Shown here: positions 5,972 to 43,260 of the stretch, piece after piece
Numbering within the stretch: the stretch's first letter is position 1
How the letters are laid out: every line of letters starts with the position of its first letter
From: Dictyostelium discoideum
Lineage: Eukaryota
Length of the DNA: 64,000 nt
NCBI GenBank assembly: GCA_000004695.1
Contig: CM000153.2
Location: forward strand, 3,744,001-3,808,000
Direction of reading: 5' to 3'
Translations under genes and position numbers: made by a program
The notes under the pieces: generated by a model
What the model was told of the DNA's origin: nothing
Seen by the model: the letters and a program-made list of their open reading frames with translations, nothing else
Database searches by the model: none

Positions 5972-6010
<39 letters not shown>

Positions 6011-9000
6011 CAAAAACTAAATGAGATTATAAAATTACAAAAATCAGTACTTCAACAAAAAACAATTACAACATCATCATCAAATACTATTTTCTTAAAA
6101 TTACAAAGTAATATACCATCAGAACGTAAAGAAGGTTTAACATTATTTAAAAAGGAGTATTGTTCAAAAACAGGAAAAGAAAAAGAAGAGACAACAACTA
6201 GTACTGATTTCAATAGTATTTCAAAATCATTTTCATCAACAATTTATCAACGTTTAATTGATTCTGATGGTTCAATTGTAAAGGAAGCTTGGAATTTACC
6301 ATCATTAAATTTAATAGTTTCACCAAAAGAATTATTAAAAGCAAGTATTGAATTCTTTAAAGTTCAATCATTCTTAAATGATAAGAAATTATTAGATACA
6401 GTTTTATCAACAATAACAAGTGTAGTTGTCAATCAATCTTCAAATTCTTCTTTAACACCAGATTTTGTTTCAATTTTATTACCACAACTTTTAGATATTT
6501 CAACCACTACCACTACCACTGCCACTTCAATAATAAAGAAATTAAACAAAGATATTCATCCAATTTTTAATAATATTACATCATCAAATATAGAATCATT
6601 AATTAAATCAATTTCAACAAATTTAGATAAAGAATCAAATATTACTTTTATAAATCAAATTTCAAAATCAACTTTTTCAACTTTTAAATCTGATATTTTC
6701 ATAATATTAATTTTATTAAATTCAATAATAAGTTGTAATAATAATAATAATAATAAGAAAAATAATAATAATTTAATTTACCAAATGTTTAATATAATAG
6801 TAGAAATTTCAAAATCATATTTATCAAAAGAAGAATCAATCATAACTAATATTAATAATTTACAAGAAGTTTATAAAATAATTAATGAAAATAATAATAA
6901 TAATTTTAATTTAAAACAACAAATTAGTTTAATTTGTTCATTATTATCAATAGCGATTGATTCTTTATTTACAATTTCACCAGAACAATTTATGAAACAA
7001 CTTCAAAATTCATCGTTATCATCTTCATCAAATACAATTGAGGAGAAAATGATTAAAGAAATTCAAAATATTTGTAAATTAATATTTAATAGTAAAATTA
7101 CAAATATTGATTTAGTATTAAGAAGTATTGTAAAGAAATTCTTTGGTAATCAATTAGTATTCTTTAAATTTTTATCACAATTTTGGGAAGTCAATGAAAA
7201 TAGTGAAAATCAAGATATTACAACCATTTATCAATCACTTTGCCTTAGTGGAATTTTAGTAAACTCAAAATCATTCAATCGTTACCTTATAAATAATAAT
7301 CAAGCAGTAGCTTTAATTCCATATTTATTATTATTAAAAAATCAAGATTCCTCAATTAGATCAACTTCCCTTGATTCAATTCAAGAGATTTATAAACAAA
7401 TTAAGTCTTCATCAATTGAAGCATCATCTTCAACAACAACATCAAATAGATTAAATTTCTATACATCAAATCAACCAACTATTGAATTAAAAGTTTTAAT
7501 TAAATTCTTGGCTCAATTGGTTCAATATAAGAATGAAATTACAATGGATAAAACATTTTTGGATAGTTATTTCTCAAAAGTTTTATTCAATTCTCAAATT
7601 AGTTCAAGTTCTAAAGCTTCTTCAAGTAGTGATGATGATGATGATGATGATGACGATGTCGATCAAGATGTATCAAAAATGACTAAACAAGATATTGAAT
7701 TAATTGGTAAATTCTTAATTTCAAGTTCATTACTTATTGAATCATTATCAAGTAGATTAACAATGTTACAATCATTACAATCTATTAAAGATGATGTTAC
7801 ATTTGTTGAAGTTACCATCAACTATATTAGCCAATTATTGGAGAATGTTAAAAATGCCACTCTTACATATGATGAATCTTTAATTTTAGATATCCTCTTA
7901 AAGAGATTAGGTCAAACATCAGTACTTACAAATCCAAAAACCAAGAAACAATCATTATCATTATTCATTTCATCTTTATCAATTTCAAATGAATTAGATT
8001 TGACTATTGCTGGTGGTGGTAATGATAAACCAATTAAATATACACCATTGGTTGCCTTAATTGGTTCAATTAATAAATCATTATTATTAACTGTACCAGT
8101 TAAAGAACAAATTGGTATTGTTGAAACAGTACTTTCTTATTTCTTCTCTGAGAGTAATCAAATTAAACAATTGGCAAAGAATACTTTATTATCCGTATTA
8201 GTCGATGCAACTGTTATTTTACCAATGTTATTACCAGAGAAACAACCACAACAACAACAACAATCTACAACATCTTTACCAATTCCAAGATATAATTCAT
8301 TATTTGAATTGATTAGATTAAATTCATCAAAAATTAATGGTATTTCAATTTTAGTAACACCAATTTTATCAATTATTAAAAAGATGGAAACTAGTATTGT
8401 TGAAAATGTTGAAAAGGATGCATTGGAATATTGTAAACAATTGGCTATGGCATCACTTGGTTCAATTATTGATTGTTCCAGTGTAAAGGATGTTAAGAGT
8501 TTGGAAACTTCATTTGATATTTCAATTATAATTAAATGTGTTGAATCATCAAATAATCTTCAAACTTGTAGTAGTGCATTAATATTACTCTCAAACATGG
8601 CTTCTAAATTCCCACAAAAATTATTCAAATTTATGGAATCAATTATAAAGATGATTAAATTCGTATTGACCAATGGTGATGATAATTTCTCATTCATGAT
8701 CTTGGAGAGATTCTTAATTCAATTATTACCAAGTTTGGTCAAACAAGGTATTTCATTGGTTCAAATCTTTAAATTATTCTTGGATTCGTTCTCTTCAATT
8801 CCAAAGAAATTCCGTTTACAATTATTCAATTGTATTTGTCAATCGGTCGCTTATAAACAGTTACATATATTGTTTAGTTTAATTCTTACAAAGAAGATTC
8901 AAGATTTACGTATTATCACTAATAAATTGAAACATTTAGATAAAGATACCATAATGAGCTCTGATGAACAAATTAAAGAAGAGATCGATTATGAACAATT

Positions 9001-11437
9001 CAATGAATTCATTTCACAATTCTCTGATCAAATTCCAGTATTGGAAATGTCAACAAGTTTAGGAAGCCTTTGTCAATCTATTAATTTAATCTCAATTGAG
9101 TCTGGTAATTGTGTTGAAGCGCTATCAGAAGAGGAGGAAGAGATTTGTTCATTACTTTCACGTAATAATTCAAAGGATAATCGTTTACTTCAAGCCAATA
9201 CATTGGATTTCATTTGTGAACGTTTATCATCAAAACTTTATTTGGACAGTTTCAGTTTCGATTTAACTAGTCAACAAAAAGAACTCGTCGAAACTAAATA
9301 TCTCGGAGCATTTGAAAATCTTTTAATCCTTTTGAAAAAGACCACTGAATATAGCGAGAAAACATCAAATATCAAACTTAATGGTAGTGCCAATAGTATT
9401 AGTATTGCAAGTGGTAAGGATAAATTCATAAAGAAACTTTTATCCTCAATTAATCTTTGTATGGATCGTTATGGTCAATTACTTAGTGTCAAAGGTTTCA
9501 TTAGTACAATCACTCAATTACTTAATCATAGTGATAGTAATGTACGTCGTCGTTCATTGGTTATCTTTAATGAGAAGATTACATTGGTCAAGGATGATCT
9601 CACTCAAGACCAAGTCAATCAATTCCTCTCACTCATTGATTCGTTCACTCGTATCATCGATAGTCAAAATGAAACTGAAACCAATAAACAAACATCACTC
9701 TTGTCATTTGAAATTTTAGCACGTAATTTCTCGACTACCAATGCCACCGCTTTCCTCTCACAAATTCCAATCATCATTAAGTCCATGGGTCATAGCAGTC
9801 ATCAAGTGGTTTCCTCATCTTTGATTTGTATCGCTACACTTTGTTGTGAACTCCAAGCAAAGACCATACCATACATTCCACAGTTCTTCCCTGTCTTATT
9901 GAATACCCTCACTGGTAGCTATAAAACCAACGTTGAAGAAGAGAATGAAACTCGTACTCTCTTACAAATTAGTTGTATCAGTTCATTGGAGATGATGTTG
10001 AATACAATTTCAAAATTCCTTTCACCTTATTTACCACAATTGTTAAATGCATTACTTCATCCACGTCTCACAAGTAATAGTATGTTATCTGGTAAATTGT
10101 TTGCTCAAGTTAAACGTTTATTAAATATCTTAACAAAGAATGTAGAATTCCGTCTCTTATTACCTGCAATGTTTTCTGCTTACGAATTTGCCGTTCAATC
10201 TGAAAATGATTTATCTTTGATTTGCTTATTCGATTTCGTTGGTGATATCTCTGCAAATTTAGGTCCAAAAGATATTGCACTCCATCATAAGAGTATCTTT
10301 AAATTCTATTTACAATGCTTTGAATTCCGTAAGAAATATAAAAATCGTGTAAAGAATGCTGATAAAGTTGAAGATCATATCATTAGTTCTTTCATGACAT
10401 TAGTTATGAAATTAAATGAAAACCTTTTCAAACCATTATTTATTAAAGTTTTAGATTGGGCATTAAATATTCAAAATGGTCAACAAAATGGTAAACATAC
10501 TGATGATGATGATGAAGAAAATGGAAGTGATGATGAAGAAAGTGATGAAGATAAACCAAAGAAAAAGAAATTGGTGAATGGTAAATCAAAATCAACGAAA
10601 ACTCAACCAGAGATTTCAAAAGATAATTTATTATTCTTTTATAAAATTGTAAATTCTTTAGCATCAAACTTAAAAACTATTTTTGTACCATACTTTGGAT
10701 ACTTTTTTGATGATTCAATTCGTCAACTTCAAAATATATATAGTAATATTCCATTTTCACAACAACCACAACAACAACCACAACAACCAACTGTAAATGA
10801 TAACACCACCATCACACTTTTAAACAATAATAATAATAATAATAATAATAATATAAATAATAAGAGAAAGAAGAATCAAAATATAACGAATACAACAACC
10901 ACTAACAATAATAGTAATAATAATTTAAATAATAGTAATAATAATAATATTGATCAAGATGAATCAATTTTATGTTTTGTAATTTCAGCATTAGAGAAAT
11001 GTTTTATGTATGATACTGATGGATTTTTAGATAAACAAAAGTTTGAACAAATTTTACCAGCACTTGTTAATCAATTAGATAATCAAATGGGTACAGTTGA
11101 AAGTTATAAATTAAGAGTTTCACGTTACATCGCCCCAACCATCACTCAATTGGCTGTTGTTATCAATCAAGATCTCTTATGGAAACATTTGAATCATACA
11201 GTTTTAATGAAAACAAGATCACCTTATTCAATCGTTCGTTACTCTTCAATGGTTGTAGTTCAATCACTTCACAAGAAGATGGGTGAACAACTCTTAATCC
11301 TTTTACCAGAAACAATTCCTTTCATCTCTGAATTATTAGAAGATTCAGTTCCAGAAGTTGAACAAATAACTCAAGATGTCGTTAAAATTATTGAAACTCA
11401 TCTTGGTGCAGAAGAATCAATTTCTTCTTATTTATAA
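5662..11437 (+). CDS. HEATR1/UTP10 homologue, exon 4 (5.8-kb terminal exon with the BP28 C-terminal domain)
   Basis: AG acceptor at 5660-5661. The C-terminus (LPALVNQLDNQMG..YKLRVSRYIAPTITQLAVVINQDLLWKHLNHTVLMKTRSPYSIVRYSSMVVVQSL..LLPETIPFISELLEDSVPEVEQ) matches the HEATR1 C-terminal domain. The four exons total 6714 nt, or 2237 aa. Confidence 0.9.
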
Positions 11438-23529: not shown

Positions 23530-23902
23530 ATGTCATCAAATAAATCTTCATCCAAAAAAAGAAAAAATGAGATAAATTCAAATGCCACTCACAATATTTT
23601 ATCTGTTACCACTAATAACAATAATAGTGAAAAGCAAACTAAAAAATTAAAATCTACTCTTTCAGAATCAACCACAACGAAAACTATCACCTCACCACAA
23701 CAACAACAACAACAACAACAACCACAACAAACCCAAAATAATAAAATAAATATTAAAGAAATCTATAATATATTTAATAATACAAATAATGCAAATAATA
23801 CAAATAATTCAAATAATAACAATACAGTTAGCGCAGACACATGGGATGGCACAACTCCAATTGAAAATTTAACAATTGGACAATTAATATCCTCACTAAA
23901 TG
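23530..23902 (+). CDS. Large nucleolar-type protein (Urb2/Npa2-like), exon 1
   Basis: ATG at 23530; GTAATT donor at 23903. Confidence 0.6.
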
Positions 23903-23963
23903 GTAATTATATCTTAAAAATATATTATCCTTTTATATATATATATATTTCAGCTATACTAAT

Positions 23964-24005
<42 letters not shown>

Positions 24006-24019
24006 CCAAAATTTTATAG

Positions 24020-25075
24020 GCAGACAACATAATCTTAGAATTATTGTTGCAGAGTATATGAATTCATTGAATAGATTAATCGGATTTACAGAAAAAACAC
24101 CATATCTCCTAAATTGGGTTTTAGATAATTTATCAAAATCATTTATAAATTGGAAACAACCTGAGAAATCTGAGCAATTAATTCAAAAAGGTATTGAACC
24201 ATTATTCTTTGAGGAAAGATATTGGACATTATTAGAAAGTTTGGTTACAAAACAAATTTCATTACAACAACAACATCAGCAACAACAACAACAACAACAA
24301 CAAAATGATACAACAAATAATTCAACCTCAACATCTAATTCTTCAAATTCAATTAAATTGTCAAATGAATATTTACAATTTATATTTGAAATTATATTAA
24401 ATAGTATTAGAAATATTGATTTAAAATTAGATATTTTCAATTCAACAAATTTACAACAACAACAACAACAACCTATCATTATATCAAAAAAGAAAAAGAA
24501 TATTAATATTCCATATCAACTTACAACATCACCACCACCACCAATTAAATTATTAGAATTTTCAAAAAGAATATCTACATTATTAATTAAAATATTTTCA
24601 AGTGATGAATTAATGAAAGAGATACCATTATTATTAGAGAATTTAATTCCATTATCAATTAAATATTTAAGAAATTCAAAAGATTTATTATTAAAAAATG
24701 AATCAACAATAATCTCAATCATTGATTTATATCAAACTTTATTCCAATATTTATTAGTTCAAACTAAATTAGGTATAAATTATAAATCAATGTTTACAAC
24801 AACTTTATCAACACTATTACCACATATAATAACACTTTTAAATACTTTGGAAAATATATCATCAATAATTCCAACATCATCTCAATTGATTGAAACAATT
24901 GATCAATTTTTAAAATGGACATTATATCATCCAGAATCTCATTGGGATTCTTACTCTTTTATTTTATTCTCTGATTGGTTAAAAAAGATTGTAAAAGATA
25001 CAACATCAAAAGAAAAAAGTAAAGAAAATGAAAAATTAAAATCAAAAGAAAATGAAAAAGAAAAAGAAAAAGAAA

Positions 25076-25107
<32 letters not shown>

Positions 25108-26416
25108 GAAAAAGAAAGAGAAAAACAAAAAGAAAAAGAAAAAGAAAAAGAAAAAGAAAAAGAAAAAGAAGATTTACAAATTTATCAACCTCAATTAATT
25201 TTAGATTGTTTATTACAAATTATTAATGGTAATAATCAAGTTTTGAATAGAGTTGTTTGTTTTAATGAAAAAGATACAGTATCTAGTATTTTAGTGAATT
25301 CACTTTATAAATTTTTAATTTACTTTATTGAACAATATGAAAGTTTTGGATATAGACATTTTAAAGATATAGTACAATGGTATGATAGTGCTAATCATAA
25401 GGATGAAAAATTCATTGAGTTTGCTTACTTTAGAAAATTATTTTCATTAATTAATACACCAACTCTATTATCAAATAATCCAACCTATTATGAATCGGTT
25501 GCAAAATTATTAAATCAAGTTTCAATTTTAAATATCTTTCATATTAGTAATCGTCATCAAGTTGATTATCTTTCAAACACTGTTGCAAATAGTTTTTATT
25601 TATACCTTTCAGCATCAAAGAATAATAATCAAAATAATCAAAATAATCAAATTAAACAAGAAATTATATTGAATGGTATTTATAAATGTTTAACATCAAT
25701 AATTAAAATTAGTAATACATTAATTGGTAATAAATTAAAGGATATAATTTTACCACATATTTGGTCAAATAACATATCAACATCAACAACAACAACAACA
25801 AAAAATACTAAAAATGGTGATTATGATGATGATAATGAATCATTATTATTTAATAATGGAAGATGTGAATTTTTAAAATCAACATTTGATAGTTATTTTG
25901 AAATTCGTCAAATGGATACACTTTTAACAATGGTTTTCCAATCTATTATTAGTGTACGTTCATTTGGTAGTGATAGTAAATTTTCAATTAATCAAGATTT
26001 CTTAAAGCATATTTCAAAATTATTCTCAAATTTACCATTTGGTCAAGTACCAATCATTTGGAGTTTATTTTTAGAAGAATGGCAAGGTTATTATATTACT
26101 CAATTAAATGAATCAAATAATAAAAGTTTAGGTGATGATAATGACCAAAGTATGTTGGACCCAATGTTTTCATATCGTTTAGAATACTTTATTAAACTTT
26201 GGTCAACTTTTCTTGATGGTATTACAATTTCATCATTTGTTTATAAAATGATTTTACAATTATTGCCAAATACTTTTCAATCAATTGTTGATCCAATTTT
26301 AAATGAAATTTATAAATCTTCTTCTGCTTCTTCTTCTTCTTCTTCCTCTTCGAGAAAATCTTCAAAATCATCTTCAAAATCATCTTCCTCAAAATCATCT
26401 TCTTCGAAATCAAATG

Positions 26417-26476
<60 letters not shown>

Positions 26477-29344
26477 GTATTATAAATTTATTAAAATTAT
26501 ATTCAAGTTTTCTTCAAGTTCATTCGTTTATACATCGTCAAACAATTATAAGTGGTAAAAGTGGTGAAAATGAATTTGGTTATCATCCTCAACAATTTTA
26601 TTATTATCAATTATGTGAAAAAGAATTAGAATTTAGTAAAGTTATTGAGTATTTAATTAATAATAATAATTTTGAAAATAATTATTCAAATAAATTAATA
26701 GCATCAAAATTATTAATTCAAAGAGTTCAACAACTTCATTCAATTTTATCATCAGTTTCAATTGCAAATTATAAAAGAAATATTAATAATAATAATATTA
26801 GTAGTAATAATAATAATTATAATTATATTAATCAAAAATCAAATAATAGTAAAAATATTGAAAATGATAAAATTAAATATATTTCATCATATTCAAATCA
26901 ACAATATTCACCAAAAGATATTGAATATGAATTAATTGATATAGTATATTATTTATTAAACAATTTCATTAAATTAATAAATGATAATAATCTTTTATTT
27001 AAAAAGTTCAATACTTTAAAACAACAACAAATTCAAGATAAATTAGAACAACAGGATAACAATAATAAAGATGAAGAAAATGAAGATAAAGAAAAAAAAT
27101 TAAATTTATTAATTTATCAAAGTAAATTATTAATTGATAATATTAGTACATGGTGTGAATATTCAACAATTGAAAATATTCAAAATATTTTAAAATTCAT
27201 TATTTCACCGCCAATTGAAATTAATAATGATGATAATAATAATAATTGTAAATTAAAAACAACCAACTCAATAACAACAACATCAATTTATAAAGAATTT
27301 CAAAAATTATTATCAAATCCATTATTTTTTGAATTAAAAGTTTTTCAAAATAATTTTCCAATTGTGTTATGTCAAATGGAACGTGATATAATTACTAAAG
27401 AATTAATTAAATCAAATAAATTATTTGAAAAAGTTACAGAAATATTTAATGATGTTCAAGAAAGATTAATTAATAGTGGTAGTCTAACACCATCAAATAC
27501 ATCCTATGCTGAAATTATTATTGAAATTCAAGAATGTTTTTCAAAGAAAATTACATTAAAAGATTTTAATTTATCTGATACTTCAAAATGGGAAAGATTA
27601 ACATGGTTAGTTTCATTGGCACCAAGTTTTCATCCACTTTATATTCCAATTGAATTAATTGGACCATTAGTATTATCATCAATTGCAATTAATCATATTG
27701 GTGTTTTATTATTAAAACAAATTCAAGATACTTCAACCATTGATAATAATAATAATGAAAAAGATTTAGATTATATTTATAAATTAATTTTATCATCAAG
27801 AAGATTTATTAAATTTTGTTTTGAAAAGGATCAATCAAGATTAGTTCAAATTATACCAATGAATGTTTGGATTGATTTAATTTTTAGTTCTAGAATGTTT
27901 GAATCAATTGATACAAAATATCCAATTTTATTTACAAGTTTAGAAATTCAACATCATTATAATACTGAACTTTGGAAGCATTCACCAATGGAATTAAAAA
28001 AATTATCTGATAAAATTTTAAATAAAAAATCAAATAATAACAATAATAATTCTGCAGCAGCAACAACAACAACAACAACAACAATAACAACTTCACCAAA
28101 AATTATTTCAACAAATTTAGATTTTAATACAATTAAACCTTATTTAATTGCTGGTATTTTAAAATCAATTTCAACAACAAATTCAAATAATCAAATGTTA
28201 TCAGATATTTTACCACCAGATCTTCAATCAATTATAAAGAGTGTTGAACCAGATATTTCAATATTTTATGAGAAAATGTTTAATCATTGTTCAAGTAATC
28301 CAACATTTAATAATATTGCACCATTCTTTAATGAATATCAAGCTGAATTCTCTTTATTGGTTTATCATCTTTGGTATCAATTATATTTCAATGCAATTGA
28401 TAACGAATCATTATCAAAATTATTAATAACTGTTTCATTCTCTGGTGTATTTATTTCTGGTTTATCAAGTAAAGGTAGTGGTTTAATTACTTCTGTTGAT
28501 AAATATTCTTTAATTCTTCAAAATTCAATTATATCATTATTAGATTTATTCTCACGTTGGTATAGTAAAATACCTGCAAATCAAAGTCAAACAAGCTCAT
28601 CATCATCGTCATCATCGCCAATGATGATTGATTCATTGCATGCATTATCATTACTTTCAAAAATGTTATCTTTATATCCAGAGGATTCTAAACTTTATAA
28701 ATCAATTTCAGCTGCAATTATTCAATTCTTCCAATTAAATAATCAATTAGGTTACCTTTTAAATTCAATTACTACAACTATGGAATCATCATCAACTTTA
28801 TCATCGTCATCAACTAATTCAATTGCAATTCAATCTCAATCATTTAATTTACTTGGTTATTTTATTAGTTCAATCATTGGTACAAAACGTATTAATTTAT
28901 TAAAGAATCCAATTAAATTAGTTACTGCAATTGTAAACATTTTAAATCAAACAAACTCTGAATCATTAATTGTATCAGGTATTAATTTACTTTGTAAATT
29001 AATGAGTGTCAATGTTATTGATGTTCATGGTGAATCTATTCCAATCATTTTAAGTGTAATGAGTTTCTTTTCAAGTCCATTCATTTATTCAACACCAGTT
29101 AGAAGTATTGCAAGTTTTAGTACTGAAATCATTCCAAATTGTCCAATGTCATTATTTATTAAAGAGAAATTATCTGCTGATAATAATATCAATAATTTCA
29201 GCAGCAGCGGCAGTAATGGTTTGAAATTTAATAACATCACACCTTTAATTTTAAATTCACTCTATAAATTACTTTATATTATTCTTAAATTTAGAAATAA
29301 TGAATTAACAAAATATTTACCATCTTTTGTTTCTTCTTTAAGAT
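24020..29344 (+). CDS. Large Urb2/Npa2-like protein, exon 2
   Basis: TATAG acceptor at 24015-24019. The ORF is continuous to the GTACGT donor at 29345. Confidence 0.65.
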
Positions 29345-29435
29345 GTACGTATTAAATTATTTTTATAGTTTTATTATTATTCAGTTGCAAAAAAAAAAAA
29401 ACTATTAAAATATTAACTAACTTTTTTTTTTATAG

Positions 29436-31763: not shown

Positions 31764-32276
31764 CCTATCCACGAATTCCAAGTTGTTGGTCGTCACGTTC
31801 CAACTGAAAGAGATGCAAACCCAAAAATCTACAGAATGAGACTCTTTGCTCAAACCTCAATCCACGCTAAGAGCCGTTTCTGGTATTTCTTATCAAAGAT
31901 TGTTAAGATGAAGAAATCCACTGGTGAAATCCTCAACGTCACTGAAATCTTTGAAGATAAACCACAAAAAGTTAAGAACTTTGGTGTATTCATCAGATAC
32001 AACTCTAGATCTGGTACCCACAACATCTACAAGGAATACAGAGATCTCACTCGTTGTGGTGCTGTTTCTCAAATGTACGACGAAATGGCCTCACGTCACT
32101 CTGCTCGTGAATCATCCATCCATATCATTGATATCAAGGAAATCGCCGCCTCATTAACCAGACGTGCCAACACTAAACAATTCCACGATTCAAAGATTAA
32201 ATTCCCATTAACTCACAGAATTGCTAAATCAAAATCAACCTTTGTTGCCAACAGACCAAATACCTTCTTCTGTTAA
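31764..32276 (+). CDS. rpl18a: Ribosomal protein L18a (eL20), main exon
   Basis: TAG acceptor at 31761-31763. [81 protein letters not shown] aligns closely to human RPL18A. Confidence 0.9.
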
Positions 32277-32480: not shown

Positions 32481-32999
32481 TTAAATTAATTTACATGTTT
32501 TAATTTTGAATTCATTTTCTTTAAGAAGATTTTTTGATTCTTCTTTTTTAATAAGATAAATAATAGATATTATTATTACCAGAGCAAAACATACAGAACC
32601 TACTATTATACCAGCTAGTTGAGCTTTAGTTAATTTGGAATCGTTAATGGTAGTACAAATTGAATTATCACTTGAGGATGCAGATTTACTATCAATCAAA
32701 ACAGAAAAATCAGGATCTATGATTATTGAATTTGCATAATTTGGTAAAATGATACCAATGAATGATTGAGATGATGACGAACTTGAAATTGAGTTGATTG
32801 ATGAATCTAATAGTTCATTTGATTTTGTTTTTACTAGAAAGTCAACTATTGCTCTTTTAATAAATCTACCATATAAAGAATGATCATCAACTTTAATTTT
32901 TAAATAATTTGATATATCATAGAATTCATCAGTTTTTTCACCAAATTGTTTATCTGAACAAATATCATCAGTCTTTGAAGAAGAAAGTGATGCAGGCAT
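32481..32999 (-). CDS. Hypothetical single-pass membrane protein (TM helix LAGIIVGSVCFALVIIISIIYLI near the C-terminus)
   Basis: ORF 32481..33047; the first ATG is at 32997-32999, and there is no database-style homology. Confidence 0.4.
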   Translation of the reverse strand: MPASLSSSKTDDICSDKQFGEKTDEFYDISNYLKIKVDDHSLYGRFIKRAIVDFLVKTKSNELLDSSINSISSSSSSQSFIGIILPNYANSIIIDPDFSVLIDSKSASSSDNSICTTINDSKLTKAQLAGIIVGSVCFALVIIISIIYLIKKEESKNLLKENEFKIKTCKLI

Positions 33000-33151
33000 A
33001 ATCAATTGTAATCCATTTAATTTATTTTTAAATTTATATTGGGACAATTCAATTGTTTATTTTATAGTTGATGGATTCATTGTTAAATTTTGATTTGCAA
33101 ATATAATATTACTCTTTTCTTTATTTATAAATTATTTAGACGATCCTTTAA

Positions 33152-34593: not shown

Positions 34594-34645
<52 letters not shown>

Positions 34646-34773: not shown

Positions 34774-35232
34774 ATGTCAGGAATCTATAGTAATAATAAT
34801 AATAATATAAATAATAATATTAATATAAATAATAATGATATAATTAATATAAATAATAGTAATAATATAAAGAATGTTATAGACCTTGGATTAAATCAAA
34901 ATAAATATTTAGTAGAACCGGATAAAGGTTGTTTATTTACGGCACAAACTACATTTAAAATCCAATATTCACCACAAATTTCACATGTCCTAACATGTAG
35001 AGAATATACGAAATCAGTCGAACAATTAAATTCAACAATAGAGCCTTTATTATCAAGTTTTAGATTAAACAATCTTTTATTCTTATTTATTTTATTATTC
35101 ATTCCATCAATTATTGTCACAGCGATTAATGCAAGTTTAGGAAAATTATTTTTGCCTTCTGTAATTGTTGGTGGTATTTCATTTCTAATTATAATATTTG
35201 CAATATTTAGAAAATCATTTTTACATAGAAAA
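34774..35232 (+). CDS. GOLGA7/Erf4-family (palmitoyltransferase-complex subunit-like) protein A, exon 1, with a two-helix TM hairpin
   Basis: KIQYSPQISHVLTCREYTKSVEQLNS resembles GOLGA7 [30 protein letters not shown] donor at 35233. Confidence 0.55.
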
Positions 35233-35289
35233 GTAATTTATTATTTATTAAATAAAAATAAAAATAAAATATTATATATATATTAACTG

Positions 35290-35322
<33 letters not shown>

Positions 35323-35330
35323 TCATTTAG

Positions 35331-35595
35331 CTTGTTCAAGGCATATCTAGAGATATTAGAGATTTTAATAAAAGGTTTCAAAGTCGTCAAGTTTTATTAG
35401 AATATTTAGTAACTACAAAATTTAATCAAAAGAATGGTAGAGAATATAGTATTAGTTTACATTTAATTTATCCAATAATAACATTAACTCCGGGAATGTT
35501 TTCAATAAATCAACAACAAGAACAACAACAACAACTACAGCAAAAACAACAAAATAAATCTCAAGAATTAGAATACCCACCCCCATTATCGATTC

Positions 35596-35630
<35 letters not shown>

Positions 35631-35696
35631 ACAGAACAAAATTACTATGATGAAGAGGATAACTCAAATGAAAACTCTTCACTTTTACGATTTTAA
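35331..35696 (+). CDS. GOLGA7/Erf4-family protein A, exon 2
   Basis: TTTAG acceptor at 35326-35330. ISRDIRDFNKRFQSRQVLLEYLVTTKFNQKNGREYSISLHLIYP resembles GOLGA7 [37 protein letters not shown]. Confidence 0.55.
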
Positions 35697-36013
35697 ATAA
35701 TAAATAATCAAAACAATTTAAATAAAATTGTTTCTATTATTATTTAATATAAAAAAAAAAAAAAAAAATTTATTCTGATATTTTGTACCAGGATTAAAAT
35801 TTTAATACACTGTCGTGATTTTTTGGGTGTTTTTATTTTTTATTTTATTTTTTTGGGTGTTTTTATTTTTTATTTTATTTTTTTTTTTAATTTTATTTTT
35901 TTTTATTTTTTTTTTTTTTTATAAATTTTTTATTTTTATAATTTTGCTTTTTCTTTTTTTTTTTGTGACTTTATAAACAATAAAAAAAAAAAAAAAAAGA
36001 GGAAATTAAATAA

Positions 36014-36487
36014 ATGGGATCTGAAGACCAACAACTACAACCACAAAATAATGGACCAATATACGGTCAACCAACATTAAAACAACAACAATTATACCAA
36101 CAATTAAATTCTCTACAACAACCACCACCACCACCACAACCAATTATAATTAGTTCAATAAGTGGAATGGTTCCAATTAGTAAAATTAAAATTAGAAATA
36201 ATGTAAATTGTGTTGGGAATTATACAACTTATAAAACTGATTACCCATTTGATTTGAATGGTGTAATGAGTGCTAAAGAATATATTAATTATATCAACGA
36301 TTTCAATAAAATAGTATCAATCAAAAAATATCCAATCATTACAATTGTGGTTCTCCAATTACTTTTAACTCTTCTAATAGTTATATTTGCAATTCAAAAT
36401 CTTTTCATACCTTTAGTAGTTTCCTTATCAATTTGTATATCATTTTCCTTTATTATAATAATTTTATCAATTTATATGGTTAGAAAG
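36014..36487 (+). CDS. GOLGA7/Erf4-family protein B (tandem paralogue), exon 1
   Basis: Same architecture as protein A (soluble N-terminal region plus TM hairpin), with a GTATGT donor at 36488 at the equivalent position after ..VRK. Confidence 0.5.
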
Positions 36488-36502
36488 GTATGTTAAACAT
36501 TA

Positions 36503-36579
<77 letters not shown>

Positions 36580-36661
36580 TTTAATAAATTGGTATAATAA
36601 TTCACATTTGTACTAATTTCATTTTCAATATTTATTTATTTATTTATATTTTCAATAATAG

Positions 36662-36967
36662 ACTGCTAATGGTATGAAGGATAAAGTTAAGGAAGTTAAT
36701 CAAAATTTATTAAATCGTAATATTTATTTTGAAGCTACACCAAAATATGTTACAAGTTCAGGAAAGAAATTTCATGTTAAATTATCAATTCATTTCCCAA
36801 CATTAGGATTTATTGTTCCACAACCAATACCACCACCAATGTATCAAACAAGTTTTCAACAACCATCTTCAATTTTAACAACACCAATTTATCAATCACA
36901 AACTAACCAACAACAATACATAAATACAATTGATGAAAATCATGAACAACAATCTTTATTAAAATAG
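36662..36967 (+). CDS. GOLGA7/Erf4-family protein B, exon 2
   Basis: ATAG acceptor at 36658-36661. NQNLLNRNIYFEATPKYVTSSGKKFHVKLSIHFP parallels exon 2 of protein A. Confidence 0.5.
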   Translation, partial: TANGMKDKVKEVNQNLLNRNIYFEATPKYVTSSGKKFHVKLSIHFPTLGFIVPQPIPPPMYQTSFQQPSSILTTPIYQSQTNQQQYINTIDENHEQQSLLK

Positions 36968-37231: not shown

Positions 37232-38967
<1,736 letters not shown>

Positions 38968-39700: not shown

Positions 39701-39746
39701 CTATAATTTAAAATTTAATAAAATTAATAAAATTTAATAAATCATA

Positions 39747-39812
<66 letters not shown>

Positions 39813-39821
39813 TTTACTTAC

Positions 39822-43260
<3,439 letters not shown>

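Follow-up and report, generated by a model that had tools for sequence, protein, structure and literature searches.

We analyzed a 64-kb window (the whole stretch of DNA under study, 64,000 nucleotides) from Dictyostelium discoideum AX4, focusing on two adjacent genes, which we call g1 and g2, whose products resemble proteins of the GOLGA7/Erf4 family. Members of this family serve Ras-type palmitoyltransferases as helper subunits, forming heterodimers with DHHC9/Erf2-type palmitoyltransferases (RNYR motif, C-terminal polyproline II [PPII] helix) and supporting their stability or activity. Gene models were built from the sequence itself, which is very AT-rich and carries abundant Asn and Gln tracts. 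Both genes lie on the + strand and have two exons, with g1 (positions 34774 to 35696) encoding a product of 274 aa and g2 (36014 to 36967) one of 259 aa. The spliced g2 product showed full identity to DDB_G0285889 / Q54MK3 from D. discoideum AX4, which currently has no name beyond "hypothetical" or "transmembrane protein." In a recent assembly of D. discoideum, genes of 923 nt/274 aa and 954 nt/259 aa agree in span and length with our g1 and g2 models.

The two genes share the same layout. Exon 1 of g1 (34774 to 35232; residues 1 to 153) encodes an Asn/Ile-rich N terminus, a beta1'-alpha1'-like block, and a hydrophobic hairpin, and ends in ...FLHRK. Its N-terminal GOLGA7-like block (34897 to 35043; approximately residues 42 to 90) consists of strands followed by the start of a helix with E77-Y78, TCREYTKSVEQLN; it aligns with the g2 block and has a predicted local distance difference test score (pLDDT) of 87 to 95 in the AlphaFold model. 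The hairpin (35056 to 35223; approximately residues 95 to 150) is basic at both ends, with R97 on one side and RK...HRK on the other. After a 98-nt intron (35233 to 35330; GT..AG, phase 0), the junction of which is identical in the orthologs, exon 2 (35331 to 35696; residues 154 to 274 and the stop codon) encodes an alpha4'-beta2'-beta3'-like block (35331 to 35474), a Gln-rich tail, and a C-terminal acidic SLL motif, DNSNENSSLLRF (35658 to 35693). Exon 1 of g2 (36014 to 36487; residues 1 to 158) encodes a Gln/Pro-rich N terminus, the corresponding beta1'-alpha1'-like block (36176 to 36316; residues 55 to 101, SKIKIRNN..YKTDYPFDLNGVMSAKEYINYINDFN; pLDDT 87 to 97), and a hairpin (36320 to 36481; approximately residues 103 to 156) flanked by KK and RK, and ends in ...YMVRK. 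Its intron is longer (36488 to 36661; 174 nt, GT..AG, phase 0), and exon 2 (36662 to 36967; residues 159 to 259 and the stop codon) again encodes an alpha4'-beta2'-beta3'-like block (36662 to 36799), here followed by a Pro/Gln-rich tail and the acidic SLL motif DENHEQQSLLK (36932 to 36964). The AT-rich spacer between the genes (35697 to 36013; 317 nt) presumably holds the 3' end of g1 and the promoter of g2. Kyte-Doolittle plots gave hydrophobic spans at residues 91 to 150 in g1 and 100 to 160 in g2, with room for two helices in each. The arrangement described in the initial annotation, i.e., two same-strand, two-exon genes with a low-complexity N terminus, a hydrophobic hairpin, and an intron directly after HRK or VRK, was thus found in place; the two intron positions coincide in the pairwise alignment, and the exon 2 peptides quoted there were located in the g1 and g2 sequences.

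The relation between g1 and g2, which had been called tandem duplicates, goes beyond chance. A composition-adjusted BLASTP comparison of the two proteins gave 23% identity over approximately 215 residues (E=2e-6), and an hhalign comparison of the g1 and g2 clade alignments, with the low-complexity tails trimmed, gave a probability of 96% over 139 columns (E=2.5e-9).

The link to GOLGA7 emerged only with a widened family profile. A word-index homolog search returned close Dictyostelium orthologs only, and neither a single-sequence phmmer search with g2 nor a hidden Markov model of ten Dictyostelium sequences retrieved GOLGA7 or Erf4 from the PDB sequences. A trimmed profile of both clades (A2) was searched against 1.84 billion representative proteins at E<=1e-3 and gave 53 matches, including relatives beyond Dictyostelium. 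It was through this search and the mutual hhalign match that g1 and g2 entered the family. The named matches came from Polysphondylium, Tieghemostelium, Cavenderia, D. firmibasis, D. discoideum paralogs, the amoebozoan Nematostelium, and the rotifer Adineta, the remainder being from metagenomes and other assemblies. One sequence of 553 aa (P0010; E=5e-14 to the family profile) was left out as a false positive, being in all likelihood a translated tandem repeat of approximately 10 near-identical units (..IDIRLNIQCLARQSTFGSTFNVQLDNQHSAQHS..) that has no hydrophobic span and owes its score to short matches occurring again and again. A separate observation concerns KYR01976.1 of Tieghemostelium lacteum (P0012; 226 aa), a hairpin Erf4-like protein that NCBI and UniRef list as "cAMP-dependent protein kinase," almost certainly by annotation error.

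When the family profile obtained from this search (A3; 53 sequences) was compared with all PDB sequences, the top matches, each at E=2e-7, were two human GOLGA7 chains, one belonging to the ZDHHC9-GCP16 complex (8hf3_B) and one to the Zdhhc5-GOLGA7 complex (9oa6_B), and the next match was at E=0.11. An hhalign comparison of A3 with an alignment of collected vertebrate GOLGA7 sequences, for which the GOLGA7 sequence used was checked to be identical to 8hf3_B, gave a probability of 92.9% (E=3.6e-7) over 100 columns in both blocks, covering the N-terminal block, the second hydrophobic helix, alpha4', and the beginning of beta2'. In this register, the N-terminal block of g2 aligns with GOLGA7 residues 12 to 54 and its second hairpin helix with residues 66 to 88, and the first hairpin helix is an insertion with no GOLGA7 counterpart. 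The Pfam Erf4 profile (PF10256) was matched at E<=0.01 by 43 of the 53 A3 members (best, 6e-9); the D. purpureum ortholog of g1 matched in the N-terminal block (E=0.0015), and such matches recurred from relative to relative in the correct register. Weak Pfam matches to Cadherin_C_2, Orbi_NS3, DUF6609, and others, which sit on the hydrophobic region at E>0.01, were discarded as noise. Yeast Erf4 did not appear in the match lists of the sequence-profile or fold searches.

The predicted structures agree with this assignment in the order of their elements. Template-free AlphaFold2 models of g1 and g2 had a core pLDDT of 87 to 97. The g2 model has strands at residues 55 to 73, a helix at 87 to 101, helices at 106 to 127 and 131 to 173, and strands at 180 to 186 and 196 to 204, and the g1 model has two long helices at residues 75 to 121 and 126 to 168. 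In a Foldseek search, GCP16/GOLGA7 chains ranked first and second with probabilities of 1.00 and 0.97 and a target template modeling (TM) score of 0.61. In an earlier study, the GCP16 fold was found to comprise an antiparallel sheet of three strands, two cytosolic helices, and two membrane-inserted helices (10.1101/2022.12.12.520165), and the models show the same plan, namely, a sheet of beta1', beta3', and beta2' lying on alpha1' and alpha4', with two membrane-entering helices in between. Human GOLGA7/GCP16, an accessory subunit of ZDHHC9/14/18 and ZDHHC5 (PDB 8HF3 and 9OA6), also shares with g1 and g2 the signature F/Y-x3-F/Y-P-x2-L...E/Q-F/Y-x3-V/I-x2-L-N, and GOLGA7 N101 is aligned with g2 N171, although the overall sequence identity is only 10 to 13%. 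Yeast Erf4, the partner of Erf2 (PDB 8HFC), is likewise comparable through the PF10256 profile and the published description of a fold with two membrane-inserted helices, but differs in having extra N-terminal elements, two extra strands, and no transmembrane hairpin.

The hairpin is where g1 and g2 depart most clearly from the known members. By cryo-electron microscopy, GCP16 and Erf4 have no transmembrane helix but two short membrane-dipping helices, and the membrane attachment of GCP16 needs palmitoylated C69 and C72 (10.1101/2022.12.12.520165). In contrast, g1 and g2 have a hydrophobic span of approximately 50 to 60 residues, forming two helices of at least 20 residues each with a short connecting loop, so that this region is approximately 30 residues longer than that of human GCP16, and neither protein has the peripheral, palmitoyl-anchored character of a family member without transmembrane helices. 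Since both ends of the hairpin carry basic flanks, both termini are predicted to be cytosolic; cytosolic N- and C-terminal halves are also required by the models, because the two halves fold into one domain. The long hydrophobic span was found in 52 of the 53 A2 matches, the exception being the excluded false positive, which indicates a coherent hairpin-anchored subfamily. Other such Erf4-like proteins, for example, DDB_G0270490 and KAM9960678.1 in D. discoideum, KAF2070291.1 in P. violaceum, DFA_00894 in C. fasciculata, the Nematostelium transcripts, and the Adineta proteins, share the architecture of g1 and g2, the same phase-0 intron in the one unlinked paralog examined, and frequently a C-terminal (S/P)L(L/I). 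They are annotated as hypothetical or as "transmembrane protein" and are uncharacterized, and thus provide no functional information.

Several results weigh against reading g1 and g2 as GOLGA7/Erf4-type cofactors, some bearing on the homology itself and others on the function. As for the homology, the Pfam scan of both proteins that had been proposed as a check came out only in part: g2 matched Erf4 at residues 68 to 122 with E=7.9e-4 and 19.8 bits, which is below the curated gathering score of 29.3 bits, and g1 gave zero matches to Pfam, Erf4 included. The matching dictyostelid relatives scored 17.6 to 28.5 bits (as low as E=1.6e-6), none reaching 29.3. When the g1-only and g2-only clade profiles were compared with vertebrate GOLGA7 by hhalign, the result was not significant (E=0.03 to 0.04; probability <2%), because these profiles are too shallow (effective number of sequences, approximately 1.4); the GOLGA7 link therefore depends on intermediate sequences. 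The AlphaFold2 models, too, were made from input alignments of 53 and 57 sequences only. Together with the strongly biased composition of the proteins, the absence of any Pfam match above the gathering score and the clade-only E value of approximately 0.03 are what would be expected if the likeness were due to chance or convergence and g1 and g2 were lineage-specific, unrelated small membrane proteins. We consider this explanation extremely unlikely, since the alignments, even the clade-only ones, repeat the same correct register and span both halves of the proteins, and since GOLGA7 was ranked first by three independent routes. The likeness claimed in the initial annotation is thus upheld by sensitive methods, and it was not the case that both proteins lacked a significant Erf4/GOLGA7 profile match. 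On the basis of the profile comparisons and the predicted fold, g1 and g2 are very probably homologous to GOLGA7/Erf4, and they are likely to represent old tandem paralogs within a dictyostelid/amoebozoan subfamily of the GOLGA7/GCP16/Erf4 family.

The results against a cofactor function concern the residues that contact the enzyme and the partner gene. The RDYS motif and Y76 of GCP16 have been shown experimentally to matter for binding to ZDHHC5/9 (PMC12528901). In the hhalign register, RDYS lies opposite N62-N63-V64-N65 of g2 (R16 to N62, Y18 to V64) and Y76 opposite I147; among the DHHC-contact residues R16, Y18, Y76, K11, and R118/R121, only K11 is conserved (as K57). The palmitoylated cysteines are not conserved either, g1 having no cysteine in its hairpin and g2 only C141, which is out of register with C69/C72. 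No D[HQ]HC motif was found in any frame of the 64-kb window that would point to a DHHC partner gene near the pair. These losses are accommodated by an alternative in which g1 and g2 are true GOLGA7/Erf4 homologs that no longer serve DHHC enzymes but are small hairpin membrane proteins with another role, such as cargo or adaptor receptors cycling through the endolysosomal or contractile-vacuole system by a dileucine-type tail. The long low-complexity extensions at both termini and the conserved acidic (S/P)LL C terminus, which are absent from human GOLGA7, would also suit such a role, as would the growth of the family to at least four paralogs in D. discoideum, including the tandem pair. On the other hand, the cytosolic fold making up the DHHC-binding surface is kept in its entirety at high model confidence, and K57, aligned with the DHHC9-contact residue K11 of GCP16, is invariant in ten Dictyostelium sequences, as are E89-Y90, N98, K158, and N171, the positions aligned with Q42-F43, N51, K88, and N101 of GOLGA7. 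Moreover, Erf2-Erf4 contacts differ in detail from DHHC9-GCP16 contacts, and the GCP16 contact residues differ in yeast Erf4, which nevertheless binds Erf2. Yeast Erf4 thus shows that contact residues can vary between family members while function is retained, so that these residues are a weak guide to membership, and their loss in g1 and g2 weakens the cofactor interpretation without excluding it. Taking these points together, we regard the noncofactor role as possible but somewhat unlikely, and our judgment leans slightly toward g1 and g2 functioning as DHHC accessory subunits by analogy with GCP16 and Erf4.

The pair is conserved beyond D. discoideum AX4. As judged from consecutive locus tags, D. 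citrinum, "cf. discoideum," and several strains of D. discoideum have the g1-g2 order, and the D. citrinum locus (L003) has a flanking ComC-like gene and a large downstream minus-strand gene as at the D. discoideum locus. In D. purpureum, the g1 ortholog is followed by one minus-strand open reading frame (ORF) and then by two g2-like genes. In every copy examined, i.e., g1, g2, both D. citrinum orthologs, all three D. purpureum genes, and the unlinked D. discoideum paralog P0011, the second hydrophobic helix is followed by a basic cluster and then by a phase-0 intron, which in P0011 lies between TRNRR and FVENL. This intron position therefore dates back to the ancestor of the dictyostelid family; its conservation, pointed out in the initial annotation, is real but is not specific to the tandem pair.

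In Nei-Gojobori comparisons with D. citrinum, the number of synonymous substitutions per site (dS) was approximately 0.3 for both genes. The ratio of nonsynonymous (dN) to synonymous substitutions was 0.11 (core, 0.06) for g1 and 0.42 (core, 0.34) for g2, and both genes are under purifying selection. The g2 protein evolved approximately five times faster than g1 (core dN, 0.105 versus 0.020), an asymmetry that fits the functional divergence suggested earlier for the pair (subfunctionalized cofactors) and, as a feature of the sequences, is compatible with it rather than proof of it. The faster rate at nonsynonymous sites would also be expected if g2 were a duplicate in decay that is turning into a pseudogene, and the g2 lineage has indeed been reduplicated at least two times, with one copy in "cf. 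discoideum" having lost its second hydrophobic helix. However, the dN/dS of g2 (0.34 to 0.42) is clearly below 1, strains of D. discoideum as well as D. citrinum and D. purpureum have its ORF, splice sites, and intron phase intact, and the clade shows no variation at the core residues, which makes decay very unlikely.

Two of the related gene models deserve mention in their own right. The "cf. discoideum" copy (P0005; ACTFIZ_002080, 228 aa) is a g2-like, strain-specific third copy located between ACTFIZ_002079 (g1) and ACTFIZ_002081 (g2), and it gave the fullest Pfam Erf4 alignment (profile positions 16 to 107 of 116; E=4.6e-6). It lacks approximately 27 residues, including the second hydrophobic helix, and may be nonfunctional or mismodeled, because a single membrane helix would put its two halves on opposite sides of the membrane. 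The D. purpureum model DICPUDRAFT_35425 (P0008; 264 aa; GL871107.1, L001 6001 to 10649) is chimeric: its residues up to approximately 195 represent the g1 ortholog (6010 to 6813), and residues 196 to 264 correspond at 100% identity to 10440 to 10646, a g2-like exon 2 tail. The genuine tail of the D. purpureum g1 ortholog is in an ORF with the end ...YYDVDNSNENSNLLNHKNINI at 7005, and two g2-like genes of two exons each, apparently without annotation, occupy approximately 8331 to 9124 and 9703 to 10649.

At the C terminus of both proteins, SLL comes after an acidic stretch, an ending that is kept in all orthologs. Across the family, [PS]L[LI] occurs within the last 15 residues of 11 of 51 A3 members, compared with an expectation of 1.8 given its frequency elsewhere, although the nominal P value (approximately 1e-6) is indicative only, because the sequences are related; examples are DSSPLI, DTTPLL, DSSPLLSKV, DTAPLL, and DKTPLINN. 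We take this tail to be akin to the adaptor-binding signals of the [DE]xxxL[LI] type, and from its sequence the acidic (S/P)L(L/I) C terminus is likely to be an adaptor-dependent sorting signal. The two D. purpureum g2-like copies have a similar ..EPLL or ..QPLL at the N terminus instead. A PPxY motif in g2 (PPMY, residues 216 to 219) was dropped from consideration, as it is not conserved in the orthologs.

The surroundings of the pair are rich in repeats. ATT microsatellites lie inside both introns, (ATT)11 in g1 (35290 to 35322) and (ATT)28 in g2 (36499 to 36583), and an array of 47 ATT copies (37235 to 37375) overlaps the kinase ORF downstream on the minus strand, in its 3' part. A perfect poly(A) run of 41 nt (34601 to 34641) precedes the start codon of g1 by approximately 130 nt, and the g1-g2 spacer contains 3.2 copies of the 30-nt unit TTTTTTGGGTGTTTTTATTTTTTATTTTAT (35819 to 35912); either of them could be a promoter or terminator element. 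Neighboring ORFs were found at 37232 to 38914 (-), 39708 to 42554 (-), 23530 to 29355 (+), 31836 to 32276 (+), and 32481 to 33047 (-). Among them are one that encodes the C-terminal portion of a protein kinase domain and, after it, very long Asn-rich tracts, two of 1941 aa and 948 aa that match nothing in Pfam, and fragments of a ribosomal protein L18a and of a ComC supersandwich domain.

Our proposed explanation is that the cytosolic domain of each protein would be built from two halves, with exon 1 providing beta1'-alpha1' and exon 2 providing alpha4'-beta2'-beta3'. The hairpin of approximately 50 residues, able to cross the bilayer twice, would take the place of the two short dipping helices of GCP16 and Erf4 and hold both halves at the cytosolic face, so that palmitoyl anchors would no longer be needed. 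In this way, each protein may be anchored in an endomembrane with its GCP16-like domain displayed to the cytosol. As in GCP16 and Erf4, it would bind a DHHC palmitoyltransferase via the hairpin and the face of the beta-sheet, the hairpin packing on the transmembrane helices of the enzyme like alpha2'/alpha3' of GCP16, and would stabilize the enzyme with no catalysis of its own. The C-terminal motif would then steer the complex to a particular endomembrane compartment. What we infer here comprises the membrane topology, the binding to DHHC enzymes, the tail's role in sorting, and any division of labor between g1 and g2. A bolder extension, which we think speculative and unlikely, is that dictyostelids, some other amoebozoans, and bdelloid rotifers have a distinct hairpin-anchored Erf4/GOLGA7 class in which the lipid anchor has been swapped for a protein anchor and the tails carry adaptor-binding acidic (S/P)L(L/I) signals, each paralog escorting a DHHC enzyme to its own compartment and the whole constituting a palmitoylation-independent S-acylation compartment code.

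In the literature, we found nothing relevant on DDB_G0285889, PF10256, Dictyostelium GOLGA7/Erf4, Dictyostelium DHHC enzymes, or hairpin-type Erf4. To our knowledge, no accessory subunits of DHHC palmitoyltransferases are better understood than the GOLGA7/Erf4 proteins, which have been described as peripheral, palmitoylation dependent, and free of transmembrane helices. The g1-g2 pair is a divergent, transmembrane-anchored variant of this known accessory-protein family and not a new type of system, and the mechanism of the family as known stays unchanged; the practical value of the finding lies in annotation and in a testable hypothesis. If the hairpin subfamily is true, the membrane-embedded contact with the enzyme can be made without lipid anchors, and D. 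discoideum, with its tractable genetics, would gain a small candidate set of S-acylation regulators among genes that are now called "hypothetical."

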